DNA of 64,000 nucleotides from the NCBI GenBank assembly GCA_963609095.1, contig CAVDHX010000024.1:7126-71125 (forward strand), read 5' to 3'. The stretch's first letter is position 1, and each line of letters starts with the position of its first letter. Below the pieces are notes generated by a model, which saw nothing but the letters and a program-made list of their open reading frames with translations, had not been told where the DNA came from and did no database searches. The position numbers and the translations under genes were made by a program. This stretch comes from Sphaerochaetaceae bacterium. GTDB taxonomy: Bacteria > Bacillota_I > Bacilli_A > RF39 > UBA660. This document shows positions 1,937-28,691 of the stretch, one piece after another.

Positions 1937-2650
1937 ATGACACCACACAATAGTGCGAAGGAAAATGAAATTGCTAAAACTGTTATTATGCCTGGAGATC
2001 CTTTAAGGGCAAAGTATATAGCAGAAAAGTATTTAGATGATTATAAATTGGTTTCATCTGTTAGAAATATTTATGCTTATACTGGATTTTATAAAGGTAA
2101 AGAAGTTACTGTTATGGCTTCTGGTATGGGAATGCCTAGTATGGGTATATATTCATATGAGTTATATAAAAATTATAATGTTGATGAAATTATTAGAATT
2201 GGTTCTTGTGGAGCTTATGATGAAAATATGAGGTTATTTGATATTATTTTATCTACTTGTTGTTATAGTGAAAGTAATTTTGCTTTGACTTTAAATAATG
2301 ATGATTGTCATGTTGCTTATAGTGATGAAGATTTAAATGTAAAAATTGAAAAGGTAGCTTATGAAAATAATATTAAATTATATAAAGGAACAACTGCTTG
2401 TTTAGATTGTTTTGATTTATATATGTCTGATATTAGTAAGTTTTTTGAAAGAATGCCAAAGAACATTAATCCAATTGCGGCTGAGATGGAAGCTTTTGCT
2501 TTGTTTTATACAGCTAAGATGTTAAATAAAAAGGCTGCTTGTTTAATGAGTGTTGTTGATAGCAAATATATTAAAGAAGTTGCTAGTAGTGAGCAAAGAG
2601 AACAAGGTTTAGATAAGATGATTTTATTAGCTTTAGATTCAATTATTTAA
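1937..2650 (+). CDS. deoD: purine nucleoside phosphorylase, DeoD-type
   Basis: 237 aa. N-terminal TVIMPGDPLRAKYIAEKYLDD and the GMGMPS/SCGA motifs are typical of DeoD family PNPs. Confidence 0.85.
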   Translation: MTPHNSAKENEIAKTVIMPGDPLRAKYIAEKYLDDYKLVSSVRNIYAYTGFYKGKEVTVMASGMGMPSMGIYSYELYKNYNVDEIIRIGSCGAYDENMRLFDIILSTCCYSESNFALTLNNDDCHVAYSDEDLNVKIEKVAYENNIKLYKGTTACLDCFDLYMSDISKFFERMPKNINPIAAEMEAFALFYTAKMLNKKAACLMSVVDSKYIKEVASSEQREQGLDKMILLALDSII

Positions 2651-2692
2651 ATCTTTTTTTAAAAATTGTTTATAATAAAAATGAGGTGAATT

Positions 2693-3961
2693 ATGGAATA
2701 TTTTAATTATGATATTGATAATTATAAGGTTCATATTATTAAAACGGATAAGTTTAAGACGGTTGCTTTAAATGTGTCTATTCGTTTTGATGATAGAAGG
2801 GAAGATATTAAATATTTTGGATTATTAAAAAGAATGCTTGTTAATACTAGTAAGTATTATGAAAGCATTCGTGATTTAAATATTGCTTGTAGTAGGATTT
2901 ATGATCCGGTTTATTCTGTTAATGTTTTATCTAGTGGTTCTCAAGATATATTAGAATTAGAGGCTAGTTTTTCTAATGAAAAGTATACTGAATGTGGTAT
3001 GAATGAAAAAGCTTTAAAATTTTTACTTGATGTTTTATTTGAACCTAGAATAATTGATGATGGTTTTGATAATGAAATTTTTAAAATACAAAAAGAAAAG
3101 GTATTAGAAGATTTAAGAAATATAAAAAATAATCCTCGAAGGTATGCGGAGATAAGACTTTTAGAATGTATGAAGGTAAGAGAGTATGATGTGATTAAGA
3201 TAGATGAATTAATTTCAGAAATATCAAGTTTAACTTCAAAGGAATTGTATAGTTTTTATAAGTATATAATGGAAAATGGTGTTTTAGATATTACTTTATG
3301 TGGTGATTTAGATGAAAATATACTTGATGTTTTTAAGAAGTATGTAAAGTTTGATGGGAAGTATATTCATAAAAATCATGTTATAAATCAAAGGTCATAT
3401 AATAAAGAAGCTAATGTTGTTATTGAGGATTCAAATAATACTCAAAGTAATTTAATTGTTGGCTGTAAGCTTTTAGATTTAACTGATTTTGAAAGAAATT
3501 ATGTTTTGGTTTTATATTCATGGATTTTAGGTGGTGGTATGGGATCACTTTTAAATCAAACGGTTAGGGAAAAAAATTCTCTTTGTTATTATATTTATGC
3601 GGTTAGGCAATATTTATTAAGTACAGTTAAGATATATGCGGGTATAAATGCTTCTGATTATGATAAGACGTATGAACTTATTAAAAAGGAAATGAAGAAT
3701 ATGGAAGATGGTAATTTTTCTTTGGATTTGTTAAATAGTGTTAAGGAGATATATTATAATTCTTTAATTAGGATGGAAGATAGTAATGCTGATATTGTTT
3801 ATGGTTTTAATATGATGTTATTTACTGGTATGGATAAGTTAGAAGAAAGAAAAGAAAAGATGAAGAGTGTTACTAAGGAAGATGTTATAAAATTAGCTAA
3901 AAAGGTTCATATTGATACAGTGTATTTATTAAAAGGAGTAAGTGGAAATGGAGAAGCATAG
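2693..3961 (+). CDS. M16-family peptidase-like protein, non-catalytic partner
   Basis: 422 aa, pitrilysin-like length and fold signature, but no HxxEH motif. It is paired with a downstream active M16 gene, ymfF/ymfH-like. Confidence 0.65.
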   Translation: MEYFNYDIDNYKVHIIKTDKFKTVALNVSIRFDDRREDIKYFGLLKRMLVNTSKYYESIRDLNIACSRIYDPVYSVNVLSSGSQDILELEASFSNEKYTECGMNEKALKFLLDVLFEPRIIDDGFDNEIFKIQKEKVLEDLRNIKNNPRRYAEIRLLECMKVREYDVIKIDELISEISSLTSKELYSFYKYIMENGVLDITLCGDLDENILDVFKKYVKFDGKYIHKNHVINQRSYNKEANVVIEDSNNTQSNLIVGCKLLDLTDFERNYVLVLYSWILGGGMGSLLNQTVREKNSLCYYIYAVRQYLLSTVKIYAGINASDYDKTYELIKKEMKNMEDGNFSLDLLNSVKEIYYNSLIRMEDSNADIVYGFNMMLFTGMDKLEERKEKMKSVTKEDVIKLAKKVHIDTVYLLKGVSGNGEA

Positions 3962-5216
3962 TTATAAAATAATAAATTTGGATGTTTATGAAGAGGTTTT
4001 AGATAATGGTTTAAGGGTTTATATTAGTAAAATTAAAAGAAATAGTATTCATGCGAGGATAACTACTTTTTTTGGGGGGTCAATTTTAGAATTTAAAAGT
4101 AATGGTAAAGATTATAAGATGCCTGGAGGGGTTGCTCATTTTTTAGAACATAAGATGTTTGAAAGTAAAGATGGGATAGATCCACTTGTTATTTATGAAA
4201 ATAATGGTGCTTCTGCAAATGCTTTTACTAATGAATTTATTACGGCTTATCATTTTACTGGGGCTAGTCATTTTGAAGAAAATTTGAATACTTTACTTAC
4301 TTGTGTTCATAGTCCATATTTTACTGATGAGAATGTTTTAAAGGAAAAGGGAATAATTTCTCAAGAGAAAAAGCAAGATTTGGATAATCCATTTTCAATT
4401 GCTTATGATAAATCTTTGGAAACTACTTTTTATAATTTGGATTTTAAAAATACGGTACTTGGTTCTTTAGAGAATATTAATAGTATAACTAAAGAAGATT
4501 TATATAATTGTTATAATACTTTTTATCATCCTAGTAATATGATTTTGACAATTAGTGGTGATGTTGATGTTGATAAGACTATGGATTTGATTAGAAAATT
4601 TTATAGTAAATTGAAGTTTCCTATGAAACCTGAAATTGAGATTGTTAAAAAAAGGGAACCTGAAGAGGTTGTAAGTGAAAAAGAGGTTATTTTTAAAAAG
4701 GATTATAAGTCTAATACTATGATTATTAATTACAAAATAAAAAACAATCATTTTATAAAGGATGATTATTTGAATAGAGTATATTTGTCATTGCTTTTGG
4801 ATATGAAGTTTGGTTCTATTTCTAAGATTGTTGATGTTTTATCTCATAATAAAGATGTTTTATCACCACTTTCTGCTTATATGATGGCAGTTGATGATTA
4901 TTTTATTTTATCATTTGGTATTATTTCTAATGATGAGGGTGTTATTGATTTAATTGATAATACACTTAAGGATAAAACATTTAGTGAGGAAGATTTTGAT
5001 TTAATTAAGAAGGTTACTTTAAATAATATTCTTTTGTCTACTGAAAATGCGAGTGGTGTATGTAGTTTGATTTCTAATCAAGTTTATTTCTTTAATAATC
5101 CTGTTTATGATATGTATGAAAAGTTAAAAAATTTAGATTTTGAAACTTTTAAAAATTATGTTGATAATTTAAATTTAGATAATAGAAGTATTGTTATGTT
5201 AAAAGGTCATGATTGA
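3942..5216 (+). CDS. M16-family zinc peptidase, active subunit
   Basis: 424 aa with the inverted zinc-binding motif HFLEH (GVAHFLEHKMFES). It overlaps the upstream M16 partner. Confidence 0.8.
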   Translation: MEMEKHSYKIINLDVYEEVLDNGLRVYISKIKRNSIHARITTFFGGSILEFKSNGKDYKMPGGVAHFLEHKMFESKDGIDPLVIYENNGASANAFTNEFITAYHFTGASHFEENLNTLLTCVHSPYFTDENVLKEKGIISQEKKQDLDNPFSIAYDKSLETTFYNLDFKNTVLGSLENINSITKEDLYNCYNTFYHPSNMILTISGDVDVDKTMDLIRKFYSKLKFPMKPEIEIVKKREPEEVVSEKEVIFKKDYKSNTMIINYKIKNNHFIKDDYLNRVYLSLLLDMKFGSISKIVDVLSHNKDVLSPLSAYMMAVDDYFILSFGIISNDEGVIDLIDNTLKDKTFSEEDFDLIKKVTLNNILLSTENASGVCSLISNQVYFFNNPVYDMYEKLKNLDFETFKNYVDNLNLDNRSIVMLKGHD

Positions 5217-5780
5217 TCTTTTATTTTTTATTTTTCCTAATAAATTTAATTCATTTTCTATTTTTTTTAATTCATTTTCGTTTATTTTAAATTCATAGAT
5301 TATTTTATTTTCAAATGTTTTTTTAATATTTATGTTTTTTAATAGGTAATTTATTTTTTTAATATTATTGTAATCGAATTCATATGTTATTTCATATCCT
5401 TTTGTTAAATTGATTATTTCGCATTTATTTAGTGCTTCACTAGCACTGGTTGAATAGGCTCTGATGAGTCCACCTGCACCTAATTTAATACCACCGAAGT
5501 ATCTTATTACTACGCATAATATATTTTTTAAATCATTTTGTTTTAATACATTTAAAATTGGGTTTCCAGCAGTACCACTTGGTTCACCATTATCGGAACA
5601 TTTTTCATGGTTATTTATTATATATCCGTAGCAGTAATGAGTGGCGTTTGGATATGTTTTTTTAATATTATTTAAATATGTATTAAAGTTATCTAAGGTG
5701 CTGAATGGTGTTATTATTGTTATAAATTTTGATTTATTTATTATTATTTCATTTGTTATTTCTTTTTTTATACTTTTCAT
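5199..5780 (-). CDS. yigZ: YigZ/IMPACT family protein (UPF0029)
   Basis: Carries the GEPSGTAG and RYFGGIKLGAGGL motifs characteristic of YigZ/IMPACT. Confidence 0.8.
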   Translation of the reverse strand: MKSIKKEITNEIIINKSKFITIITPFSTLDNFNTYLNNIKKTYPNATHYCYGYIINNHEKCSDNGEPSGTAGNPILNVLKQNDLKNILCVVIRYFGGIKLGAGGLIRAYSTSASEALNKCEIINLTKGYEITYEFDYNNIKKINYLLKNINIKKTFENKIIYEFKINENELKKIENELNLLGKIKNKRSIMTF

Positions 5781-5878
5781 TGAATCACCATTTAAATTAT
5801 AAATAATTAAGTTTTAAAAATCAATATTGATAAAATAATAATAATTAATTATAATTATTAGGAAGGAGGGTTAGTTTT

Positions 5879-7630
5879 ATGGTTTTAGAAAAGTTAAAGT
5901 TAGTTCCTCATAAACCTGGGTGCTATTTAATGAAAAATTCTGATGGGGTAATTATTTATGTTGGTAAGGCTAAAGATTTAAGAAATAGGTTAAATTCTTA
6001 TTTTCATTCATCTCATACTGGTAAAACTGCTCGCCTTGTTGAGGAAATTGCTGATTTTGATTATATTGTAGTTTCATCTGAAACTGAATCTTTAATATTA
6101 GAGATTAATTTAATTAAAAAGCATGACCCTAAGTTTAATATTTTATTAAGGGATGATAAGAGTTATCCTTATATTGAACTTACTGAAGATAAGGTTCCGA
6201 GGTTACTTGTTGTAAGAAATGTTCATAGAAAGAAGAGAAAAACTAGGTTATTTGGACCTTATCCAAATGTTTATGCGGCTAGGAAGGTTGTTAATTTATT
6301 AAATAGATTGTATCCTTTAAGAAAGTGCAGTAGTTATCAGAAAAGACCTTGTTTATATTATCATATTAATCAATGTTTAGGTTATTGTGCGAATGATGTT
6401 CCTAAAGAAAAAATAGAGGTAATGGAAAAAGAAATTATAAGTTTTTTGAAGGGAAATCATGAGATAGTAACTGATAAAATATATAGTGAGATTAAAAAAG
6501 AAAGTGAGTTATTACATTTTGAAAAGGCTTTAGAATTAAAGCAACTTCTTGATGATATAAATGTTGTTTTGGTTAAACAAAAGATTGAAATAAATGATAA
6601 TGTTGATAGGGATATATTTGGATATTTTAATGATGAGAATTATTTAAGTGTTTTTATATTTTTTGTAAGGGGAAGTAAGATTATTGGCCATCATCATCAA
6701 ATTATTCCTTTGGTTGATACGAAAGAAGAAGAATTTACTAGATATATTGCGAAATTTTATGAGAAATCTTTGATTCCTAAGGAAGTACTTATGCCTAATA
6801 TTATTGATTCTAATTTACTTATGGAGTATTTAAATACTAAGGTTTATATTCCTTTAAAAGGGGTTAAAAAGAAATTGGTTGATATGGCTAGTGATAATGC
6901 GAAGAAGAATTTACTTGATGAATTGGAACTTTTAAATAGAAATGAAGAGAAAACTTGGAAGGCGAATGATGAGCTTAGAAAGTTATTAGGTATGGAAAAA
7001 CTTGATAGAATTGAAATATTTGATAATGCTCATTTGTTTGGAACTTATAATGTTTCTGGTATGGTTGTTTTTATTGATGGAGTTGGTGTAAAAAATGAGT
7101 ACCGTAAATTTAAAATATCTTTTGATAAAAATGATGATTATGGAACGATGAAGGAAGCTTTATATCGAAGATATTTTAGGGTTTTAAAGGATAATTTAGT
7201 TAAACCTGATTTGATAATTGTTGATGGTGGAATTGGGCAGATGAATGCGGCTTTAGAAATACTTGATAGTTTAGGTTTAAATATTAATTTGGTTGGTTTA
7301 AAGAAGGATGATAAGCATTCTACTAATGCACTTGTTACTTTTGATGGTGAGATTCCAATTGAAAAACGTAGTAATTTATTTCATTATTTGGAAAGAATGC
7401 AGGATGAGGTTCATAATTTTACAATAAATTATCATAAGCAAATTAGGAGTAAAGGGGTTTATTCAAGTATATTGGATGATATTTCTGGAATAGGGGATAA
7501 AAGGAAAAAAGAATTACTTAAAAAATATAAAACGATTGATAATATTAAAAAACAATCAGTAGAAGAACTTTCTAGTATTTTGCCTAAATCGGTTGCAGAA
7601 GGTCTTTTGAATATTTTAAAAAATATTTAA
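5879..7630 (+). CDS. uvrC: excinuclease ABC subunit C
   Basis: 583 aa. Has an N-terminal GIY-YIG (GCYLMKN...IIYVGKAKDLRNRL), a UvrBC domain, an RNase H-like domain and a C-terminal HhH. Confidence 0.9.
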   Translation: MVLEKLKLVPHKPGCYLMKNSDGVIIYVGKAKDLRNRLNSYFHSSHTGKTARLVEEIADFDYIVVSSETESLILEINLIKKHDPKFNILLRDDKSYPYIELTEDKVPRLLVVRNVHRKKRKTRLFGPYPNVYAARKVVNLLNRLYPLRKCSSYQKRPCLYYHINQCLGYCANDVPKEKIEVMEKEIISFLKGNHEIVTDKIYSEIKKESELLHFEKALELKQLLDDINVVLVKQKIEINDNVDRDIFGYFNDENYLSVFIFFVRGSKIIGHHHQIIPLVDTKEEEFTRYIAKFYEKSLIPKEVLMPNIIDSNLLMEYLNTKVYIPLKGVKKKLVDMASDNAKKNLLDELELLNRNEEKTWKANDELRKLLGMEKLDRIEIFDNAHLFGTYNVSGMVVFIDGVGVKNEYRKFKISFDKNDDYGTMKEALYRRYFRVLKDNLVKPDLIIVDGGIGQMNAALEILDSLGLNINLVGLKKDDKHSTNALVTFDGEIPIEKRSNLFHYLERMQDEVHNFTINYHKQIRSKGVYSSILDDISGIGDKRKKELLKKYKTIDNIKKQSVEELSSILPKSVAEGLLNILKNI

Positions 7631-7681
7631 GGTAAATTTTCTTTTTTATAAAAATATAGTATAATTGTTGTGGTGATATAA

Positions 7682-8989
7682 ATGTTTGAAAATTTAGGAG
7701 ATAGATTACAAAATGCTTTAAATAAAATAAAAGGTTATGGTAAGATTACTGAGGAAAATATTAGTGATGTTACAAGAGAAATTAGACTTGCTTTATTGGA
7801 GGCTGATGTTAATTATAAGGTTGTTAAGGAGTTCATTAATGATGTTAAGGAAAAGGCTTTAGGTGAAGAGGTTAGTAAGAGTTTAAAGCCTGGTGAAGAG
7901 TTTGTAAAGATAGTTAAAGATGAATTAACTGAATTACTTGGAAAAGAAGATGAACCGTTAATTATTGTAAAGCCGATGACTATTTTGATGATGGCTGGTT
8001 TACAGGGTTCTGGTAAAACAACAACTACTGGTAAACTTGCTTTACTTTTGAGAAAAAAATTTGGTATGAAGCCATTAATGGTAGCTTGTGATGTTTATAG
8101 ACCGGCTGCAATCGATCAATTAAAACAATTAGGTAAAGAACTTAATATTGAAGTATATTCTGAAGGTAAAGGTAATCCAGTTGAGATTGCGAAAAATGGT
8201 GTTGAATATGCTAGAGAAAATGGATATAATTATGTTTTGATTGATACGGCTGGTAGATTACATATTGATGATGAATTAATGGAAGAGTTACAAAACATTA
8301 ATGAAGATGTTAAGCCTAATGAGATTTTACTTGTAATTGACAGTATGATGGGTCAGGATGCTGTAAATGTAATTACTGGTTTTAATGATAGATTGCCACT
8401 TACTGGGGCTGTTTTAACTAAATTAGATGGTGATACTAAAGGTGGAGCGGCTTTATCTATTAGACATTTGACAAATATTCCTATTAAGTTTATTGGTGTA
8501 TCTGAAAAAATGGATGGATTAGAGCCCTTTCATCCTGAAAGAATGGCTAGTAGAATTTTAGATATGGGCGATTTAATGGGGATGATTGAGAAGGCTGAGA
8601 GTGTAATTGATGAAAAAGAAGCTATGGAGGCAGCTAAAAAATTACAAAAGGGTAAGTTTGATTTAGAGGATTTTTTGAATCAATTAAATCAAATTAAGAA
8701 GTTAGGACCACTTGAAAATTTAATTAAGTTGATTCCTGGTGCTAAAAAAATGGGATTAAATAATGTGAGTATTGATCCTAAACAAATGGCTCATATTGAG
8801 GCTATTATATTATCTATGACTTTAGAGGAAAGAAGAAATCCTGATATTTTAAAAGCTAGTAGGAAAAAAAGAATTGCGAGTGGTAGTGGAACTAGTGTAG
8901 AAGAGGTTAATAGACTATTGAAACAATTTGAACAAATGAAAATTATGGTAAAGCAGATGAAAAATGGAAATTTTAAGATGCCTTTTTAG
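7682..8989 (+). CDS. ffh: signal recognition particle protein Ffh
   Basis: 435 aa. Contains the SRP54 N domain, a GTPase domain (GLQGSGKTTT, DTAGR, TKLDG) and a Met-rich M domain. Confidence 0.92.
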   Translation: MFENLGDRLQNALNKIKGYGKITEENISDVTREIRLALLEADVNYKVVKEFINDVKEKALGEEVSKSLKPGEEFVKIVKDELTELLGKEDEPLIIVKPMTILMMAGLQGSGKTTTTGKLALLLRKKFGMKPLMVACDVYRPAAIDQLKQLGKELNIEVYSEGKGNPVEIAKNGVEYARENGYNYVLIDTAGRLHIDDELMEELQNINEDVKPNEILLVIDSMMGQDAVNVITGFNDRLPLTGAVLTKLDGDTKGGAALSIRHLTNIPIKFIGVSEKMDGLEPFHPERMASRILDMGDLMGMIEKAESVIDEKEAMEAAKKLQKGKFDLEDFLNQLNQIKKLGPLENLIKLIPGAKKMGLNNVSIDPKQMAHIEAIILSMTLEERRNPDILKASRKKRIASGSGTSVEEVNRLLKQFEQMKIMVKQMKNGNFKMPF

Positions 8990-19983: not shown

Positions 19984-20370
19984 ATGGATAGTAAAATTTT
20001 TAAATTTTTAGTTTTTGTTTTAATTATTATAATCGCACTTGTTGTTTCATCAAATTCTGATAAGCAGGAAGTTACACTAGTTAAAACATCTGATGAGTTG
20101 ACTAAGATTTTGGATATAAAAGGTCTTGTTATAATCGACATTAGAAATAGTGATGAATTTAAAGAAAGTCATATTCCAAATGCTATCAATATTCCATATA
20201 ATGAACTTAAAAGTAGACTTAAATATAGTTTAAAAACACCCATTTTAGTTTATTCTAAAAATGATTCGCGTAGTCATTTGGCTGCTTTACAATTAAAACA
20301 GATGAATTATGTCACAATTTATGAACTTGGCAATATGGAGATATACAATGGAAATTTAATTAAAAGTTAA
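19984..20370 (+). CDS. rhodanese-domain protein with N-terminal TM/signal
   Basis: 128 aa with a rhodanese fold and an active-site Cys-loop region. Some rhodanese motif residues are present (VIIDIRNSDEF...) and an N-terminal hydrophobic helix is present. Confidence 0.65.
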   Translation: MDSKIFKFLVFVLIIIIALVVSSNSDKQEVTLVKTSDELTKILDIKGLVIIDIRNSDEFKESHIPNAINIPYNELKSRLKYSLKTPILVYSKNDSRSHLAALQLKQMNYVTIYELGNMEIYNGNLIKS

Positions 20371-20380
20371 TTTTCTATTT

Positions 20381-20466
20381 GCATGGATGGCGGAATGGTA
20401 GACGCGCTACTTTGAGGGGGTAGTGAGATATATCTCATGCGAGTTCAAGTCTCGTTCCATGCACCA
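20381..20466 (+). tRNA. tRNA-Leu (anticodon GAG), with encoded CCA
   Basis: Folds as a cloverleaf: acceptor gcatgga/tccatgc, D-arm GCGG-AATGGTAG-ACGC. The anticodon stem is ctact/ggtag with loop ttGAGgg. It has a long variable arm and T-arm gcgag-TTCAAGT-ctcgt. Closely parallels E. coli/Bacillus tRNA-Leu. Confidence 0.9.
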
Positions 20467-20885: not shown

Positions 20886-21332
20886 TTAGAAAATGGTACC
20901 AGAATTTAAAACTTTATTTATGATTATGAAAATGGGATTAGCTGAAGTACAAACAGGTAAATTAGATACTGATTTATCAAAAATTGCAAAGCTAATCTCT
21001 TTTTCATTATAAGTATAGTTATCTTTTTGATATGATAATTTAAGATAATAATCTAATATGTTTATATTATTAAGTGATGCTTCTTGATATTTTAAATAAG
21101 TTTGGATATATTTATCTGAGTACGCTTTAGGTCTAGAACCAAAATGTGATGCAATACAATGAGAAATATGGGATTCCATAGAGGATTTAATATCTGAATA
21201 TTTCATGGCAATAATACCTTTCCAATGTTTAATGATGTAGTTTTTATATTCAGTAATTTTATCTTTTCTTGTCTGTTTGTCCTTTGATTCAATAATCTCA
21301 TCTATAATTTTAATAAATTTTTTTTCTTTCAT
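20886..21332 (-). CDS. hypothetical protein, possibly a mobile-element (transposase-like) C-terminal remnant
   Basis: 148-156 aa ORF with no N-terminal catalytic region. The upstream 21357-21560 holds broken coding-like sequence. Sits next to the tRNA. Confidence 0.3.
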   Translation of the reverse strand: MKEKKFIKIIDEIIESKDKQTRKDKITEYKNYIIKHWKGIIAMKYSDIKSSMESHISHCIASHFGSRPKAYSDKYIQTYLKYQEASLNNINILDYYLKLSYQKDNYTYNEKEISFAIFDKSVSNLPVCTSANPIFIIINKVLNSGTIF

Positions 21333-21671
21333 CTGATTTTTTATAAGCCTTATCAATTAAGAAAATGAAGTCAACTATTAATTCAATAACCATCTCATTA
21401 ATTTCTTTTTGTAAATTCAAAAAAGAGTCTATGTATCTATGCGTTGATAAATTGTTAAAAATTGAATTTAAAATATCAATTAGTTTATATTTATTTTTTT
21501 TAAGGCCATATTAATATAAAAATTTTTTGTTTCATAATTTAAAATCTGTGATAAAATATTCGTAGAAAGAGCTCCTTTTTATTGTATTTATAGTGATATT
21601 ATATCACACTGAGTTCTTTCTTTTTTTTATTTTTTCCGATACTATGTTGCATTATCACTTATGCAAAATGA

Positions 21672-21700
21672 TTGACTAAAATGGAAATATATGGTACATT
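21672..21700 (+). promoter_or_regulatory. sigma-A-type promoter for the peptide/MccB-like operon
   Basis: TTGACT - 17 nt - TACATT. Confidence 0.45.
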
Positions 21701-21755
21701 AATTATAACTTGATGGAGCTGTTATTTCTATTAAGTGCGAAAGGTGGTTAAAACA

Positions 21756-21821
21756 TGAAAATTAGTGTTAAAAAATTAGCTGAAACACAATTTGCTTGCC
21801 ACGTAGATCAAAATTGCTAAT
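21756..21821 (+). CDS. candidate 21-aa precursor peptide MKISVKKLAETQFACHVDQNC
   Basis: An RBS (AAAGGTGG) lies 6 nt upstream of the ATG. The ORF is followed at once by a 9-bp stem hairpin and is directly upstream of an MccB-like enzyme. Confidence 0.45.
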
Positions 21822-21836
21822 TGATGCTAAACATTA

Positions 21837-21858
21837 AAGCCCATCTTCATGGGCTTTA
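21837..21858 (+). terminator. intra-operon hairpin, possibly a partial terminator or attenuator, between the peptide ORF and the MccB-like gene
   Basis: aaagcccat-cttc-atgggcttt, followed by a weak U-tract. Confidence 0.45.
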
Positions 21859-21889
21859 ATGTGTTTATAAAGGTATAAAGGAGATTTTT

Positions 21890-22939
21890 ATGAGAGTATT
21901 AATAAATCCTACTAAGCCATTTTATTTAAATGAAATCAAAAAATCAATCAGATGTGGTAATTTTTCAGAAACAGGGAAAGTAATTGATTATGAAGATGAA
22001 ATGTTTGTTAGTTTTTTTAAAGAACTGTCAAAATTTATTGACGTTAAAGATTTAGAAAATATTGCAAAAACTAAATATTCAATGAGTAGTAAGGATTTTA
22101 ACGAAATATTAAAATATTTGATGAATGAAAAATTTGTTATTACTGATGATGAATATAATAAAATATATAATTATGATAAATTATATAATAGACAAAATGC
22201 TTATTTCTTTATGGTGTCAGATGATAATAAAAATATTGATTTATATAAAAACAAAAATATTTTAATTTTAGGATTAGGAGGAATAGGCTCTAATGTTGCT
22301 GAACAATTAGTAAGAGCTGGGTTTTCTAATTTTATGCTTGTGGATTGTGATATTGTTGAAAGTTCTAATTTAATTAGACAAAATGCTTATTATTCAGATG
22401 ATATTGGTATGTCTAAAACTACTGCGTTATCAAGAAGATTAATGTTAATAAACAGTAGTATAAAAGTTAATAAATACAACACAAAAATATTTTCTAAAGC
22501 TGATGTGTTACAATATATAGAAAAAGCAGATTTCGTAATTTGTACTTTGGATAAACCATATAGAAAAATTAGAAGAATTATAAATTCAGCATGTGTAAAA
22601 TGTAATAAACCTGTTATTTTTTCCGGATTTGCTGAACACGTCGGTATGGTTGGACCTTTTGTTGTTCCTTATACAACCGCTTGTTTAGAATGTATAGATA
22701 AGCAAGATGCCGAAATACCATTTCAAAATGTAAAAATTGCTCCTTCGTTTGGACCTTTATGTAACATCATTTCTTGCATTGTAACAGCGGAAGTGATAAA
22801 TTATTTTGTAAAATATAATTCGTATAATTTAATAGGATGTACTTTAATGTTTAATATGATTAACTATAAAACGGAAATTATTAAATGGTATAAAAATCCG
22901 TCATGTAAAAAGTGTGGTGATAAAAATGATAGTAAGTAA
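21890..22939 (+). CDS. MccB-like ThiF/E1-family peptide adenylyltransferase
   Basis: 349 aa. An N-terminal ~100-aa extension (peptide-clamp-like) precedes the Rossmann motif ILILGLGGIGSNVAEQLVRAGF...LVDCDIVESSNLIRQ. VGPFVVPYTTACLEC (CxxC) and a C-terminal SCKKCGDK (CxxC) mirror the MccB FGPLYVPGKTGCYEC...CSVCGNRM tetracysteine. Confidence 0.8.
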   Translation: MRVLINPTKPFYLNEIKKSIRCGNFSETGKVIDYEDEMFVSFFKELSKFIDVKDLENIAKTKYSMSSKDFNEILKYLMNEKFVITDDEYNKIYNYDKLYNRQNAYFFMVSDDNKNIDLYKNKNILILGLGGIGSNVAEQLVRAGFSNFMLVDCDIVESSNLIRQNAYYSDDIGMSKTTALSRRLMLINSSIKVNKYNTKIFSKADVLQYIEKADFVICTLDKPYRKIRRIINSACVKCNKPVIFSGFAEHVGMVGPFVVPYTTACLECIDKQDAEIPFQNVKIAPSFGPLCNIISCIVTAEVINYFVKYNSYNLIGCTLMFNMINYKTEIIKWYKNPSCKKCGDKNDSK

Positions 22940-24545
22940 TTTAAGTAAAAATATTAGTGGAAGAGATTTACTTGATAATATGAGTTTTAGTTTAAATGTT
23001 GGCAATAAGGTTGGATTAATAGGTAAAAACGGTGTGGGGAAATCAACTTTGTTAAAAATTCTGTCTGGCGATTTACTTTGTGATTCTGGTAAGATTAATT
23101 TAAATGGTCAAAAGGTAAAAATGTTAAAACAAGAAATTTCTAAAGATGATTATGATTATAGTATTATTGATTATATAAAAAAAGAAAATAATATTTTAAA
23201 TCTCGAAAAAAGATTACACGAATTAGAAACAAATTTAAATGATGATAACATGGAAGAATATGGTGATATACTAGATCAATATTTAGGTTTAGATGGTTAT
23301 AATTTTGAAAATAATTTAGGAATGGTTTTAAATGGCCTTAAATTAGATATAGATATTAATAAAAAAGTCGAAACATTATCTGGAGGACAAAAGATAAAAA
23401 TATTACTTGCTAGTTTACTTTTAAGTAATGCTGATATATTACTTTTAGATGAACCTACCAATAATTTGGATATTGAAGCTATAGAATGGCTAGAAAATTA
23501 TCTTATAAAATTAGAAAAGCAAATGATAATTGTTTCTCATGATGAAGAATTCTTAAACAATGTAACTAATAAAATTTTTGAATTAGAAAATGGTAAAATT
23601 ACTGAATATAATTTAAGTTATTCTGATTATTTAAATTATAAAGATATGGAATATAATCATAAACTAGAACAATATGAACAAGCCCAAGAACAAAAGAAAA
23701 AAATAAAGGTCCAAATTCAAGAAGCTAAAGAATGGTCAAATAAAGGTTTCTCATCAAAAAAGAAAGATAATGATAAAATAGCCGCTAACTTTGCTAAAGA
23801 AAGAACTAAAAAAACATCTGCAAAAGTATCAGGATTATCAAAAGAACTGGAAAAAATAGAAATTGACTCTAATTTTAGAAAACGTGAAGCCATTAATTTT
23901 ACTGTAGATTACTCAGATATAACAGGAAATGGCGATATTTATATTGAAGATTTAGTATGTGGCTATAATGATTTTAAAATACCATCTATAAAAGTAGATA
24001 TTCCATTTGGAACTAGAATACAAATATACGGTAAAAATGGTAGTGGTAAAACGACATTTATAAAAACACTTTTAAATGAAATTAAACCTATTAGTGGAAA
24101 AGTATATATAGGAAATGATGTTAAATTTGGATATATTTCTCAAGATAGTTTAGAAACCAATTCTGCAAATCTTTCAATATATGATTATTTGTCACAAAAT
24201 ACTGGCATTGATAAGAGCATGTTGTTTAATATTCTTAATAAATTTCATATAGCGTATGAAGATAAAGATAAACCTTATTTGACTTTATCACCAGGTCAAA
24301 GGACTAGAGTCAATTTGGCTAAATTAGCTATAAATAAAATTAATACATTAATATTAGATGAAGCAACTAATCATTTAGATATAGAAGCAATTCATGTGCT
24401 AGAAGAAGTTATTGATACATTTAATGGAACAATCATTAGTATTTCTCATAATAGAGCTTTTAACGAATATTTAAAGTCTGATGTTATTTTAAATATTGAA
24501 GATGCTAGTTTGACATATCCAGATAAAAAAGTAAAAAAAAAATGA
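22926..24545 (+). CDS. ABC-F family ATPase (tandem NBDs, no TMD), ribosome-associated and ARE-like
   Basis: Two Walker A motifs (GKNGVGKST, GKNGSGKTT) and two signature/Walker B sets, joined by a ~90-aa charged linker. Its ATG overlaps the upstream stop by 14 nt, with a GGTGA RBS. Confidence 0.85.
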   Translation: MIVSNLSKNISGRDLLDNMSFSLNVGNKVGLIGKNGVGKSTLLKILSGDLLCDSGKINLNGQKVKMLKQEISKDDYDYSIIDYIKKENNILNLEKRLHELETNLNDDNMEEYGDILDQYLGLDGYNFENNLGMVLNGLKLDIDINKKVETLSGGQKIKILLASLLLSNADILLLDEPTNNLDIEAIEWLENYLIKLEKQMIIVSHDEEFLNNVTNKIFELENGKITEYNLSYSDYLNYKDMEYNHKLEQYEQAQEQKKKIKVQIQEAKEWSNKGFSSKKKDNDKIAANFAKERTKKTSAKVSGLSKELEKIEIDSNFRKREAINFTVDYSDITGNGDIYIEDLVCGYNDFKIPSIKVDIPFGTRIQIYGKNGSGKTTFIKTLLNEIKPISGKVYIGNDVKFGYISQDSLETNSANLSIYDYLSQNTGIDKSMLFNILNKFHIAYEDKDKPYLTLSPGQRTRVNLAKLAINKINTLILDEATNHLDIEAIHVLEEVIDTFNGTIISISHNRAFNEYLKSDVILNIEDASLTYPDKKVKKK

Positions 24546-24675
24546 AAAAAGTATAAATATTATATAGAGTTGATGCAAATATTTTTTAACATTATAATTA
24601 ATACATCAAATACAATTGAACTTTTTACCAAAGTATGCATAGTCTCTTCAGTAAACTCTCCATTATGAAATTAAC

Positions 24676-24700
24676 CCTTGAATATCAAGGACTTTTTTTT
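24676..24700 (+). terminator. Rho-independent terminator after the ABC-F gene
   Basis: ccttga-ata-tcaagg followed by a T8 run. Confidence 0.6.
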
Positions 24701-25155
24701 ATGTTTTAATTTAATTAGGTACAAATCAAGTATATTTTTACAATTAACTTTTTCCTCCTAGCTTATTTTAGTTGAATTTTAACCATTGTATTGTTTATAA
24801 TCAACTTATAGAGTAAGGGGTTGTTTTTGTATATCCGAAATCATTTTACATTATCAGATGAAAAGTCTGATGTTATTTATATTTATGATAATATAGTTGT
24901 TTTTTGTGTTGGGCAAATCGAACAATAAAATTATGATAAAGCATATAGTAGATATAAAAATAGTGTTTTAACGTGGAAGAACAATTTGTGAAATCATATT
25001 TATATTAAAAATTTATAAAAGTATTAAAAAGAATTACTGTATAAAAAATTGCTGTCATTATGTTAGTATTTTTTTCATTCAACAATTATATTTTAATTTG
25101 AAATATGCTATTTTAAAGTCCTATTGATAAAGTTATAATTATGAATTTTTTGGTT

Positions 25156-25584
25156 TTAATTTAATATGTAAATGCCATACGTTAAGTATGATGCAAATAA
25201 TAACCATATTATGTATGGTATATTAATATATGCTGATATTTTATTTACCTTGTAAAATTTATAAATCATTATTACGACAATTATTAGTAATATTATAATC
25301 CAAATTAATGCGAATAAATACCATTTAAATATGAAGAAGATAATTGGCCAAATACCATTTATGATTAAATTTGTATAGTATATTTCTTTGTTTTTGTTGT
25401 TTTGTAAATAAAAACTTATACCCATTAAAATGTATAAAATAGTCCATGCAATTGGAAAGATAATTCCTGGTGGTGAAAATAAAGGCTTTGATATATTTTG
25501 ATAATTCATAAATGGACTTATAATTATTCCTATAAAGATACCCATAATTAATGGTATAGCTATATTTTTTAATAAATTTTTCAT
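25156..25584 (-). CDS. tspO: TspO/MBR family tryptophan-rich sensory protein
   Basis: 142-aa 5-TM protein carrying PPGIIFPIAWTILYILMG, which matches the TspO PxWxFxPxWT(x)LY motif. Confidence 0.7.
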   Translation of the reverse strand: MKNLLKNIAIPLIMGIFIGIIISPFMNYQNISKPLFSPPGIIFPIAWTILYILMGISFYLQNNKNKEIYYTNLIINGIWPIIFFIFKWYLFALIWIIILLIIVVIMIYKFYKVNKISAYINIPYIIWLLFASYLTYGIYILN

Positions 25585-25657: not shown

Positions 25658-26011
25658 TTGATATTAATGGGGATGCTTACAAAGAGTAATAGGAATGAAG
25701 ATGATTTGTTAACTTTAAATTTAAATGATAGGAATTTTTCTATTTCTTTTGATAATGTTGAAAGGAAAATAAAATTAAATGAGAAAAGCTCAATTTTATT
25801 AGAAAAAGCTATTAAACAAAATTGTTTTTTAATTAAAAATGATAAATTGATTAAGGTAGGTAATTATAAAATAGTTTTAAAGAATGATGATGTAAGTAAG
25901 CTATGGTTAAAATCATTTGATAAATTAGTAGAATATAAGTTAATATTAAAAAATAATTCAAATTATATAGTTTCTGATAAAGGGAAAAAATATTTTAGAG
26001 AATATTGTTAA
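25658..26011 (+). CDS. hypothetical protein
   Basis: 117-aa ORF divergent from tspO. No recognisable motifs. Confidence 0.35.
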   Translation: MILMGMLTKSNRNEDDLLTLNLNDRNFSISFDNVERKIKLNEKSSILLEKAIKQNCFLIKNDKLIKVGNYKIVLKNDDVSKLWLKSFDKLVEYKLILKNNSNYIVSDKGKKYFREYC

Positions 26012-26095
26012 CATTATTTTTATAAATAATGTTTTTTTGTTTTTTTGAAGGAATTTGCAATTTTACGTCGTATATTAATAAGTGAGGAGGTTAAA

Positions 26096-26782
26096 ATGGA
26101 AATATTGAATATTATAAATCTAACAAAGAAATATAAAAATGGAACTGATGAATTGTATGCATTAGATAATATTAATTTTAAAGTAAAAAAGGGTGAATTT
26201 GTTATTATAACTGGTAAAAGTGGAAGTGGTAAAAGTACTCTTTTACACTTAATAGGGGGATTAGATTTTCCAACAAGTGGAACTGTTTTGGTTAATAATA
26301 CAGATATTTATAAGTTAAATGATAAAAATTTGACTATTTTTAGAAGAAAGTATATTGGAATTATATATCAATTTTATAATTTAATTCCTGTTTTGAATGT
26401 TTTTGAAAATATTATTTTACCGGCTTTATTTGATAAAAGAAAAATAAATGAAGAAAAAATTAATAATTTATTAAATAAATTAGGACTTAATGGTAAGAAT
26501 GATTATTTGCCAAATGATTTATCAGGTGGTGAACAACAAAGAGTTGCGATTGCTAGAGCTTTAATTAATCGGCCTAAATTGGTTTTAGCTGATGAACCAA
26601 CTGGGGCTTTAGATAGTAAAAATAGTAAATATATAATGAAATTATTAAGGTTTTATAATAAGAAATATAAGCAAACTATTATTATGGTAACTCACGATAC
26701 TTCTTTAGTTAGTTATGCCGATAGAATAATAACTATGTCTGATGGTAAGATAGAAAAGGATATTATTAATGATAAGCATTAA
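26096..26782 (+). CDS. ABC transporter ATP-binding protein (MacB/BceA-like)
   Basis: Walker A GKSGSGKST, signature LSGGEQQRVAIARAL, Walker B LVLADEPTGALD. RBS GAGGAGG. Confidence 0.85.
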   Translation: MEILNIINLTKKYKNGTDELYALDNINFKVKKGEFVIITGKSGSGKSTLLHLIGGLDFPTSGTVLVNNTDIYKLNDKNLTIFRRKYIGIIYQFYNLIPVLNVFENIILPALFDKRKINEEKINNLLNKLGLNGKNDYLPNDLSGGEQQRVAIARALINRPKLVLADEPTGALDSKNSKYIMKLLRFYNKKYKQTIIMVTHDTSLVSYADRIITMSDGKIEKDIINDKH

Positions 26783-28691
26783 ATTTTTAAAGAAAAATAA
26801 AAAGCAAACAATTACTATGGTTATGGGCATTATTTTATCAAGTGTTTTACTTTTTAGTATTGGCATTTTATTTTCTTCATTTAGAAATTTTATGATAGAA
26901 GATGTTAAAAAAAATGTTGGAAATTATCATGTAAAAATAGTTGGTAATATAAATGATGTAGATAAAAAACAAATTTTAAGTATAAAGAAAAAAAATGAGT
27001 ATTATATAAGATTTAAAAATATAAAAAATGTATATAGTTATACTGAAAATATTTGTGAAAAAAATCAATGTTTAGAGGTTATTTATAATACAAAATTGCT
27101 TTCTTTATATGGTGTTACTGATAATGATAATTTATTAAGTATATTCAAGAAAATTATAACGTTAATTGTTTTGATTTTATCGTTGGCTGTGTTTTTTATT
27201 GTTTATAATTCTTTTAATATTTCTTTAGTAAAACAAAAGCGAGATATATTTTTACTTAAAGTAAGTGGAGCTGATAATAGGTGCTTGTATAAAATTTATT
27301 TTTTTCAAGGAATTATTGTTGGATTGATTGGCATAATAATTGGTTTTTTAGTAAGTATGGTTATGAATATTTTTTCAATAAAGTTTATTAATTTGTTTTT
27401 ATATGAATTTTTTAGAGGAAGTTTAAAATTATCTATTTATTTTGATTTTATTTTAATACCGTTTTTTTTTATAATATTAATTGTTTTTTTGTCATCTTTA
27501 TTTCCACTTAGAAATTTGAATAAATATAAGATTGTTGATTTATATAATCCTATAAAAAACAATTATATAAATAAATATGATTTTAGGAAAAACTTTGTTT
27601 TAAATTATTCTCTTATAAATTATGAACGTGAGAAGCATAATTATAGAAATTTAATTATATGTTTATTTATCCTCTTATTTCTTTTTAATAGTTTTTTTTC
27701 GTTTATGCGATATACTTTTAAAATAATTAATGATTATGTTATTCTTCCAGAATATGATTTGTTAGTAAAAGCAGATATTGACGTGGTTAAAGATATTGAT
27801 AGAAAATTGGTTCCTAGTAAGTCTATTATATATAATTCATGTAATGGAAAGGTTCAAATAGCTAAAGATAAGTTTAATAAAAATCAAAAAGTGGGTAATG
27901 CTTTAATAACTAATTTAGGTGGTAATGAATTAATTAATTTTGTTTTTGAGGTAAAAAGTGAAAATGATTTGATGGTTAAAAATAATTATATTCCTTTTAA
28001 CAAATTGGATAAGGTTATATTGAATGATGAAAAATTATCTATTTCTTTAACTAATAAAATACCATTTGGATTTAAATCTTTATTAAAAAGTGATATTGTA
28101 ATTTTGAATTTAGATAATAATAATTTTTCTAAATTTTGTTTAAATTATGATACCATTGGTTATTTTAAAACTGATAAAAGTAATCTTGATGTATTTTTAA
28201 ATAATTATGCTATAAAAAATAATGTTGATTTAATTTATAGTAATGTTAAAAAAGCTAAACAAATTATTTCAAATATTGTTTTATTGATTAAAGTATTTAT
28301 TTATTTAATTATAGTTTTAATAATTTTAATATGTGTTACAACTATTTTTAATATTGTATCGGCTAATATTAAGTTTAGAAAAAGGGAACTTGCAAATTTA
28401 AAATCATTAGGTTTTTTAAATGTTAATATTGTTGAATTGTTATGCTTAGAATGTTTTATTATTACATTTAAAGCTTTTATTTATGCTTTACCATTTATTT
28501 TACTTGTATTTAAGTTTTTTTATAATAATCTTGGCAAAGTATTTAAATTAAATTTATCTATTTTTGATTATGAGCTTTTAACTGTAAGTTTTGTATTGTG
28601 TTTAATCATAGTTATTATATGTATGCTTTTAAGTTATATGTCTTTAATGAAGGAAAGTTTAATTATAAATATAAAACAGGAAATTTTTTAA
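26769..28691 (+). CDS. FtsX-family ABC permease with two FtsX modules and large extracytoplasmic domains (BceB-like)
   Basis: 640-aa polytopic membrane protein. It overlaps the ATPase gene. Confidence 0.7.

Follow-up and report, generated by a model that had tools for sequence, protein, structure and literature searches.

A conserved small gene ending in CHVDQNC as the probable precursor gene of a ThiF-type RiPP cassette in uncultured gut Bacilli

We analyzed a stretch of 64,000 nucleotides (positions 7,126 to 71,125 of contig CAVDHX010000024.1, assembly GCA_963609095.1), referred to here as the window, with a focus on a 21-codon open reading frame (ORF) at position 21755 whose product ends in Asn-Cys. 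The ORF is followed by a gene for an MccB-like ThiF enzyme and a gene for an ABC-F ATPase. We consider it likely that the ORF is the precursor gene of a cassette for a ThiF-type peptide that is made by the ribosome and modified after translation (RiPP), in which the enzyme would modify the C-terminal core CHVDQNC and the ABC-F protein would protect the producer. The peptide is most likely the substrate of the neighboring enzyme. Overall, the evidence fits best with a new ThiF-like RiPP family, distinct from microcin C and carried by a compact, horizontally mobile cassette in uncultured gut bacteria.

Conservation of the peptide gene with the enzyme gene

The central features of the cassette are the following.

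21740 to 21747, + strand: Shine-Dalgarno sequence of the peptide gene, AAAGGTGG, found by direct reading of the sequence, 7 nt before the ATG
21755 to 21820, + strand: putative precursor peptide gene, 21 aa, with ATG at 21755 and TAA at 21818-21820
21831 to 21862, + strand: intergenic hairpin with a 14-bp stem and the loop CUUC, then a U-rich stretch
21890 to 22939, + strand: gene for a ThiF-like adenylyltransferase of 349 aa, MccB/EnfB-like, with a predicted N-terminal peptide-binding domain (Pfam ThiF, 2e-48)
22914 to 24545, + strand: gene for an ABC-F ATPase of ~540 aa, overlapping the end of the ThiF gene (two Pfam ABC_tran matches and ABC_tran_Xtn)

The original prediction had placed a small ORF with a good ribosome-binding site at 21756; the ORF is present and starts one nucleotide earlier. 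Its full product, MKISVKKLAETQFACHVDQNC, consists of the leader MKISVKKLAETQFA and the core CHVDQNC, after which TAA follows. Short ORFs are common in AT-rich DNA and a 21-codon ORF taken alone could be due to chance. This ORF is a real, strongly conserved gene and no chance product because it is conserved across homologous loci, in all of which a GGAGG-like Shine-Dalgarno site is found at the same distance to the ATG.

Homologous loci were collected by three independent routes that started from the enzyme (i), from the peptide motif alone (ii) or from the ABC-F protein (iii). The routes converge, as all of them return the same order, in which a peptide of ~21 aa comes first, then a hairpin, the gene of an MccB-like ThiF enzyme and an overlapping ABC-F. 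The window enzyme has ~90 homologues at 43-92% identity, and a genome scan with the enzyme alignment yielded 18 family loci in metagenome-assembled genomes (MAGs) with ThiF homologues that are 40-69% identical. These MAGs are labeled as uncultured Bacilli, ‘Tenericutes’, Erysipelotrichaceae and Clostridia and derive from the guts of human, rabbit, deer and other hosts. Upstream DNA was readable in 15 of these loci, and 14 of them have an ORF of ~21 codons with a Shine-Dalgarno site 40-80 nt ahead of the enzyme gene; every further locus examined beyond those 15 also has the peptide ORF. In a decaying copy, L014, the ORF is shortened to 11 codons (MKFACHVDQNC). When back-translated CHVDQNC with its stop was the only query of a metagenome scan, 32 loci were found and a ThiF-like gene came directly after the peptide in 31 of them; the remaining locus ends at the contig end after the peptide. 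The ABC-F search gave more than 120 clusters at an identity of at least 59%, and three homologues chosen blind all had a ThiF gene and a peptide gene directly upstream. In total, 30 distinct peptides from ~50 loci were collected, and the terminal Cys is invariant across these ~50 loci.

Most peptides of the main family have 21 residues and a few have 19-20; a variant that is abundant in gut samples is MKVTVKKLKSTKFSCHVDQNC. The leader of the main family is variable in sequence at a fixed length of 14 residues (M-K-F/I-x-V-K-K-hydrophobic-x-x-x-K-F-x), with M-K-F-x-V-K-K-x-x-x-x-K-F-x as the consensus of the enzyme-retrieved loci. The core CHVDQNC is invariant, with CHVDQHC (Asn to His) as its sole variant; the locus concerned, L006, has an intact enzyme and an intact ABC-F. 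Core codons were compared among the ThiF-retrieved loci, which had been assembled without regard to the peptide. Synonymous variation was seen at the stop and at six of the seven core codons (TGC/TGT, CAC/CAT, GTA/GTT, AAT/AAC, TGC/TGT, TAA/TAG), and the Asn to His exchange of L006 is the one non-synonymous core change in this set. At the same time, the DNA between peptide and enzyme genes cannot be aligned between loci, and the leader also diverges freely. Mostly synonymous changes in the core next to diverged intergenic DNA indicate that selection acts on the amino-acid sequence. The original prediction had looked to related genomes for a conserved small ORF at this place; the ORF is kept there, in the same frame and with the N-C ending.

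The core is also shared by a distant subfamily (L088, L097, L111 and L115) whose enzymes are 28-33% identical to the window enzyme and barely nearer to it than E. coli MccB (116 versus 100 bits). The peptides of this subfamily, MIKSVKKVKAINDTPLLCHVDQNC in L088, L111 and L115 and MIKNIKKMTKEEAIAVTCHVDQNC in L097, carry a leader of different sequence with 17 residues, three more than in the main family, and an identical CHVDQNC. In L111 the gene after the enzyme is a fragment of an ABC exporter instead of an ABC-F, and no ABC-F was detected in the readable DNA of this locus. L112 encodes a homologue of the fragment, an ABC_membrane/ABC_tran exporter with 38% identity (E 8e-19). L112 (P0099), which has a ThiF gene and an ABC exporter but no CHVDQNC peptide upstream, was rejected as a family member and used solely for this identification. 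An identical core with a distant enzyme, and with an exporter in the place of the ABC-F, argues that the peptide is tied to the enzyme rather than to the ABC-F. The L097 cassette adjoins a relaxase gene and a MobC-like gene. In L114, which equals L111, positions 2114-6300 encode an MFS transporter, a 357-aa helix-turn-helix (ArsR-like) protein and an M3 oligoendopeptidase F, on the same strand as and directly upstream of the peptide gene. This peptidase could be a leader peptidase there; it was not found upstream of the peptide gene in L097.

The enzyme, the ABC-F protein and the proposed product

Among solved structures, MccB is the best relative of the window enzyme by sequence (phmmer against the PDB, 7e-32 over residues 64-345), followed by MoeB (2e-19) and PaaA (4e-13); the ThiF/MoeB equivalog models all score far below their cut-offs. 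An AlphaFold2 model based on 24 homologues (mean pLDDT 90) predicts an N-terminal beta/alpha domain at residues 1-110. Foldseek aligned the model with MccB over the full length including the N-terminal domain (TM 0.80, ~357 columns) and next with PaaA (0.74), while MoeB and ThiF cover the catalytic domain only. R163, K176 and D221 are the counterparts of MccB Arg157, Lys170 and Asp214 (TRQ, NKT and SAD motifs). K176, D221 and the Zn-site Cys tetrad C265/C268/C339/C342 are invariant in 24 sequences and R163 is nearly so. With its ATP, Mg and Zn residues kept, the enzyme looks catalytically competent.

The window enzyme was scored against characterized ThiF-like RiPP enzymes whose sequences had been read by optical character recognition from a paper supplement, and the resulting bit scores are approximate (MccB 100, GrcB 83, EnfB 80, PaaA 62 and IndF 58 bits). 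In these comparisons it falls outside the clades of all of them. Plasmid and phage collections contained no close relative, with at most 30% identity. The best plasmid match, an EnfB-like protein of Niallia taxi (99% of the query aligned, 30% identity), proved to belong to an EnfB-like WWIII-type system; its precursor MKKVTVRRATKVEATTWWIII has 21 residues and a leader, MKKVTVRRATK..., of the same pattern as in the window peptide. Two 444-aa ThiF proteins (P0092/P0093) were rejected since they belong to a different cluster with a methyltransferase and GNAT and with no CHVDQNC peptide. At L116:652-3699, genes for a class I methyltransferase and a GNAT acetyltransferase come after that of a 444-aa ThiF-like protein (31% identical to that of the window). 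The arrangement is nearer to microcin C, lacks a CHVDQNC peptide and represents a different system.

The ABC-F protein, which probably starts with the ATG at 22926, has two nucleotide-binding domains joined by a linker and no membrane domain, and aligns over its full length to YbiT, ExpZ and EttA. Its nearest solved proteins are ExpZ and YbiT; the interdomain linker aligns with that of ExpZ with small gaps and is longer than that of YbiT. On the NCBIfam model NF000355 ‘ribosomal protection-like ABC-F’ it reaches 390.4 bits with a cut-off of 380, a marginal score, and it stays far below the cut-off of each specific resistance subfamily (Vga, Msr, Lsa, Sal, OptrA and others). Among the main-family loci, all those with readable DNA have the ABC-F gene directly downstream of the ThiF gene and overlapping it.

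Decayed copies of the cassette bear on the role of this gene. L011 (5581-8344) has lost the peptide gene and the first ~104 enzyme residues, in L015 the enzyme appears split, and the ABC-F is intact in both; in L014 the enzyme and the ABC-F are both split (L014 and L015 were taken as decayed copies around 5968-8530). All three could be true pseudogenes or MAG assembly errors. Bacteriocin immunity genes typically persist as orphans in this way, and an ABC-F kept in the decayed L011 and L015 is the pattern expected of an immunity gene. Going by sequence, the ABC-F most likely serves target protection of the producer, which would place the target of the product on the ribosome, at the large subunit.

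ThiF-like RiPP enzymes adenylate a carboxylate, which is then captured by a nucleophile in the peptide (PMC12596934, PMC12250964, PMC12150305). We propose that the window enzyme would dock the leader and then adenylate a core carboxylate, and that the activated acyl group would be captured within the peptide by a Cys thiol. This could happen in two ways. In route A, the C-terminal alpha-carboxylate of Cys21 would be activated, as in MccB, EnfB and IndF, and attacked by the thiol of Cys15; the resulting thiolactone would have a ring of seven residues, precisely those of the invariant motif. In route B, the side chain of Asp18 would be activated and caught by the Cys21 thiol, similar to GrcB with Glu35 and Cys39. 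By analogy we favor route A because Cys residues stand at both ends of the motif and the nearest enzymes act on the alpha-carboxylate. Neither route equals the Asn phosphoramidate chemistry of the microcin C type. As for precedents, GrcB makes a thiolactone between Glu and a C-terminal Cys (PMC12596934), and thiols trap the acyl-adenylate that MccB forms, yielding thioesters (PMC13255007). The ABC-F, translationally coupled to the enzyme, would protect the target in the producer, and the product would act on the large ribosomal subunit.

The original prediction had left the choice between a Cys-dependent chemistry and trimming of the terminal Cys. A Cys-dependent step is best supported by the invariant Cys, by the linkage to the enzyme down to 28% identity and by the GrcB precedent. 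Trimming to Asn is disfavored because the Cys never varies, the conserved cassette has no peptidase gene and the sole core substitution turns Asn into His.

Several points weigh against a modified peptide with ABC-F self-protection. The adenylation site, the nucleophile and the modification itself are all predicted from sequence. The enzyme shares 27-36% identity, over partial lengths, with every characterized ThiF-like RiPP enzyme, so their chemistry cannot be transferred to it with confidence. The main-family cassette contains neither an exporter nor a leader peptidase, which is unusual for a secreted antibiotic, and strict C-terminal conservation would also be expected of an arrest peptide. 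Lastly, the marginal NCBIfam score of the ABC-F and its place outside the characterized resistance subfamilies make a role other than immunity possible.

More tentatively, we can imagine that a macrocycle (the thiolactone, or head-to-tail cyclic CHVDQNC formed by an S-to-N acyl shift after leader removal) binds the large ribosomal subunit and that the ABC-F is its dedicated target protection; this more specific proposal is doubtful at present. As the main family has no exporter, the peptide-ABC-F pair might even work intracellularly, as a module for ribosome-directed addiction or regulation.

ThiF-like enzymes are a growing source of new peptide macrocyclization chemistry and, to our knowledge, only about five of their reaction types are characterized. 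The family described here is found widely in human and animal metagenomes, both gut and oral, with hosts that have not been cultured, and its heptapeptide core remained unchanged while the enzymes diverged to 28% identity. The pairing with a ribosome-protection-type ABC-F predicts the target. If the product does target the ribosome and the ABC-F confers immunity, this would be the first RiPP pathway with ABC-F self-immunity, linking RiPPs to ABC-F target protection. It would also offer a new ribosome-targeting scaffold and a very small genetically encodable translation inhibitor, spread by mobile DNA among uncultured small-genome gut Bacilli. A minimal system of a 21-residue peptide and one enzyme is expected to be easy to reconstitute, and the enzyme may serve for C-terminal activation and cyclization of peptides.

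Alternative explanations and comparison with known systems

We considered whether the small ORF might have a regulatory function, in which its translation, possibly stalled by a drug, controls read-through into the ThiF and ABC-F genes and the peptide is no substrate. Upstream ORFs control resistance ABC-F genes, and a small ORF with a terminator-like hairpin is located here upstream of an operon with a ribosome-protection-like ABC-F. The C-terminal conservation, too, resembles that of arrest peptides. The original prediction had named attenuation as one reading and had described a hairpin at 21837-21858. The hairpin is larger and stronger than that, spanning 21831-21862 with -19.8 kcal/mol (z = -4.8 versus dinucleotide shuffles, 0 of 200 of which fold as well), and each of the 15 loci tested has a hairpin between the peptide gene and the enzyme gene, with differing stem sequences. 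We nevertheless regard a purely regulatory ORF as unlikely. An antiterminator was searched for in the 15 loci by blocking the 3' arm of the hairpin and refolding. In 14 of them the penalty, and thus the energy gap between terminator and alternative, was the same as in the shuffled-ORF control, from which we conclude that the ORF encodes no antiterminator. The distance from stop to stem varies among loci (0-19 nt), the ThiF gene always lies between the ORF and the ABC-F, and an Rfam scan of the whole window at the gathering threshold revealed no known leader or riboswitch, its sole match being a tRNA. Moreover, the same core accompanies a ThiF enzyme of 28% identity and, in L111, an ABC exporter and not an ABC-F; the enzyme has, according to the model, a dedicated peptide-binding domain; and the leader resembles that of the EnfB substrate. 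The attenuation reading is thus not supported, given the missing antiterminator signal, the variable spacing and the company of the core in the distant subfamily, even though a regulatory role need not exclude a role as substrate. The hairpin itself is probably a partial terminator or a transcript stabilizer between the two genes. It would set a high ratio of peptide to enzyme transcripts, as is reported for the intergenic hairpin of the mccA-mccB operon (PMC4231749).

Quite unlikely is a Trojan horse of the microcin C type, in which the Cys would be trimmed or transient and the exposed Asn nucleotidylated as by MccB. Likenesses to microcin C do exist. MccB is the closest solved enzyme by sequence and fold, the ATP, Mg and Zn residues are kept, Asn is penultimate in the core, and the order of peptide gene, hairpin and enzyme gene is that reported for mccA-mccB in the paper cited above. 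The MccA/MccB framing of the original prediction was too narrow, and the system belongs with the wider group of ThiF-like RiPP enzymes. The window precursor ends in Asn-Cys (in one relative in His-Cys), whereas the N-P bond of microcin C is made at a terminal Asn; its partner gene encodes an ABC-F, and the cassette is devoid of the mcc accessory genes, namely the mccC MFS pump, mccD/E and mccF. Furthermore, the core heptapeptide is fixed as a whole, which is not expected of MccA-type uptake-carrier peptides, and an ABC-F would not protect against an inhibitor of an aminoacyl-tRNA synthetase. We consider microcin C chemistry unlikely because the Asn is not terminal, Cys21 is invariant in ~50 loci, the only core substitution (CHVDQHC in L006, with enzyme and ABC-F intact) removes the Asn, and no peptidase or mcc-like gene is conserved. 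The earlier statement that a C-terminal Asn is common to all characterized MccB substrates is valid for systems of the microcin C type only. It does not extend to other characterized ThiF-like enzymes, whose precursors end in Cys (GrcA) or Ile (EnfA, IndA) (PMC12596934, PMC12250964, PMC12150305).

It is very unlikely that the peptide stays unmodified, or is only disulfide-bridged or metal-binding through its Cys, His, Asp and Cys residues, with the enzyme acting elsewhere. C-H-x-D-x-x-C would make a plausible metal-binding or disulfide loop, and the modification is so far a predicted one. Yet the peptide co-occurs with the enzyme in every locus, down to 28% enzyme identity, and the enzyme has an MccB-type peptide clamp fold in the model. 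The fixed leader length (14 residues in the main family, 17 in the distant subfamily) is what would be expected of a ruler from binding site to active site. A chance ORF with the true precursor encoded elsewhere, which the frequency of short ORFs in AT-rich DNA might suggest, can be dismissed given the in-frame conservation with a Shine-Dalgarno site upstream of the enzyme in all loci, the mostly synonymous core changes and the recovery of the enzyme by the motif-only search.

A ThiF-type RiPP system remains the preferred reading, and general features of such systems are found here: a clamp-ThiF fusion with intact ATP/Mg residues and an adjacent, co-conserved precursor with a leader and a C-terminal core. 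Enterofaecin (EnfA/EnfB, WWIII type; PMC11256085) is similar in its 21-residue precursor with a basic leader (M-K-x-x-V-K/R-K/R-...) and a short conserved C-terminal core, in an enzyme that fuses a peptide-binding domain to a ThiF domain, and in a cluster without a leader peptidase. EnfB requires the leader motif (V/I)RKA (PMC11256085), and the window family has V-K-K-L/V/I at this position, which is similar and not identical. The two systems differ in the core (CHVDQNC versus WW(I/V)xI), in the partners (an ABC-F here, multiple transporters and quorum-sensing regulators there) and in enzyme sequence (~30% identity). By analogy, the nucleophile would probably also differ, being a thiol here and a backbone amide there.

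The GRC type of Streptococcus pneumoniae (GrcA/GrcB) also has a precursor with a C-terminal Cys and an acidic residue a few positions upstream, and GrcB, which is ThiF-like and contains an RRE domain, uses ATP and Mg to form a thiolactone (PMC12596934, PMC12250964). GrcB is the second-best match to the window enzyme among the characterized enzymes, with the 83 bits obtained from the character-recognized sequences. Asp18 and Cys21 are invariant in our family with a spacing of Asp-x2-Cys, compared with Glu-x3-Cys in GrcA (Glu35/Cys39). Differences are the second Cys at the start of our core and a cassette without radical SAM enzymes, standalone RRE, transporter or quorum-sensing regulators. The uncharacterized, predicted ‘CxxxC type’ of ThiF-like clusters from Streptococcus (PMC11256085) shares a C-terminal motif with two Cys residues and a strictly conserved last residue. 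By its description it is set apart by spacing (C-x5-C in our family), by a ThiF-peptidase fusion and regulators, by its occurrence almost only in Streptococcus and by the absence of a reported ABC-F.

The window ABC-F can be compared with ABC-Fs of producers and of resistance (TlrC/CarA/OleB/SrmB-type and Vga/Msr/Lsa-type). They are alike in being soluble, with two nucleotide-binding domains, within a biosynthetic operon and with a linker longer than that of YbiT. Self-resistance ABC-Fs in antibiotic clusters include Ard1 and LmrC; the window protein differs from them in scoring below the cut-off of every characterized resistance subfamily. The published genome-mining subfamilies WWIII, NWYFI, VEGR, NICxxxK, CxxxC and GxxQY (PMC11256085) include none with a CHVDQNC motif or an ABC-F. 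In our literature search, CHVDQNC occurred in no paper of the searched library, and the papers searched on ThiF-like RiPPs reported no ABC-F paired with a ThiF-like RiPP enzyme. The family thus looks undescribed while working like known ThiF-like RiPP systems.

Cassette borders and neighboring genes

Further features lie at the borders of the cassette and upstream of it.

20381 to 20463: tRNA gene (Rfam, 49 bits)
20886 to 21356, - strand: truncated ISLre2-like transposase ORF, immediately upstream of the cassette
21657 to 24662, + strand: extent of the conserved cassette, defined by blastn alignments with L094 (92.8% identity, from 21657) and L001 (93.0%, to 24662)
21672 to 21700, + strand: promoter-like site TTGACT-17-TACATT with an upstream TG, from a consensus scan with 9 of 12 matches; a weak candidate only
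24676 to 24698, + strand: terminator-like hairpin with a T8 run past the end of the ABC-F gene; no other terminator-like site was found in 21300-25200

The nucleotide identity of 92-93% between the window and L094 and L001 is confined to 21657-24662, and both flanks differ. The conserved content of the cassette is the peptide, the ThiF and the ABC-F gene only, with flanks that differ between loci. The promoter candidate falls just within the conserved block, and shuffled sequences give equally many such matches; the hairpin at 24676-24698 is likely the end of the operon. The tRNA gene and the transposase remnant suggest that the cassette sits at a hot spot of insertion or rearrangement, and other copies of the cassette are found beside relaxase and replication genes.

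Two neighbors were considered as partners of the cassette and rejected. The ABC ATPase and permease at 26045-28691, a MacB/FtsX system that might have been the exporter, is not conserved with the cassette, and only its generic ATPase domain matches other loci. A rhodanese gene at 19984-20370, a candidate sulfur donor, lies outside the conserved block, beyond the tRNA and the transposase remnant. The region at 25658-28691, ~1.1 kb past the cassette, encodes a 117-aa protein without domain match, then the ABC ATPase (26045-26782) and a 640-aa FtsX-type permease (26769-28691). In L121-type loci, a small unknown protein and a fused MacB-type ABC/FtsX gene follow the cassette as well; similarity to the window genes is limited to the ATPase domains (43%), so that a link to export is tentative.

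Roughly a third of the family loci carry a divergent gene for a protein of ~215 aa, which we call c3, ~200 nt upstream of the peptide gene (L004:367-1023, L013:4983-5621 and L094:1058-1693, all on the - strand, and ~13 other loci). No Pfam match to c3 was found even at E = 5. It contains the Cys-rich motifs KYGYTCDIxQIYCYL, EVGCGYIPILS, YLCPC and CPIIIAK, the first of which loosely resembles the peptide core C-H-V-D-Q-x-C. The gene is present in L094, the ~92%-identical relative, and absent from the window, where the transposase remnant takes its place. Possibly c3 belongs to the cassette as its fourth gene, with a role in tailoring, immunity or regulation. Elsewhere in the window, an all-against-all BLAST grouped two adjacent ORFs of ~190 aa at 14795-15394 and 15510-16070 (+ strand) as paralogues.

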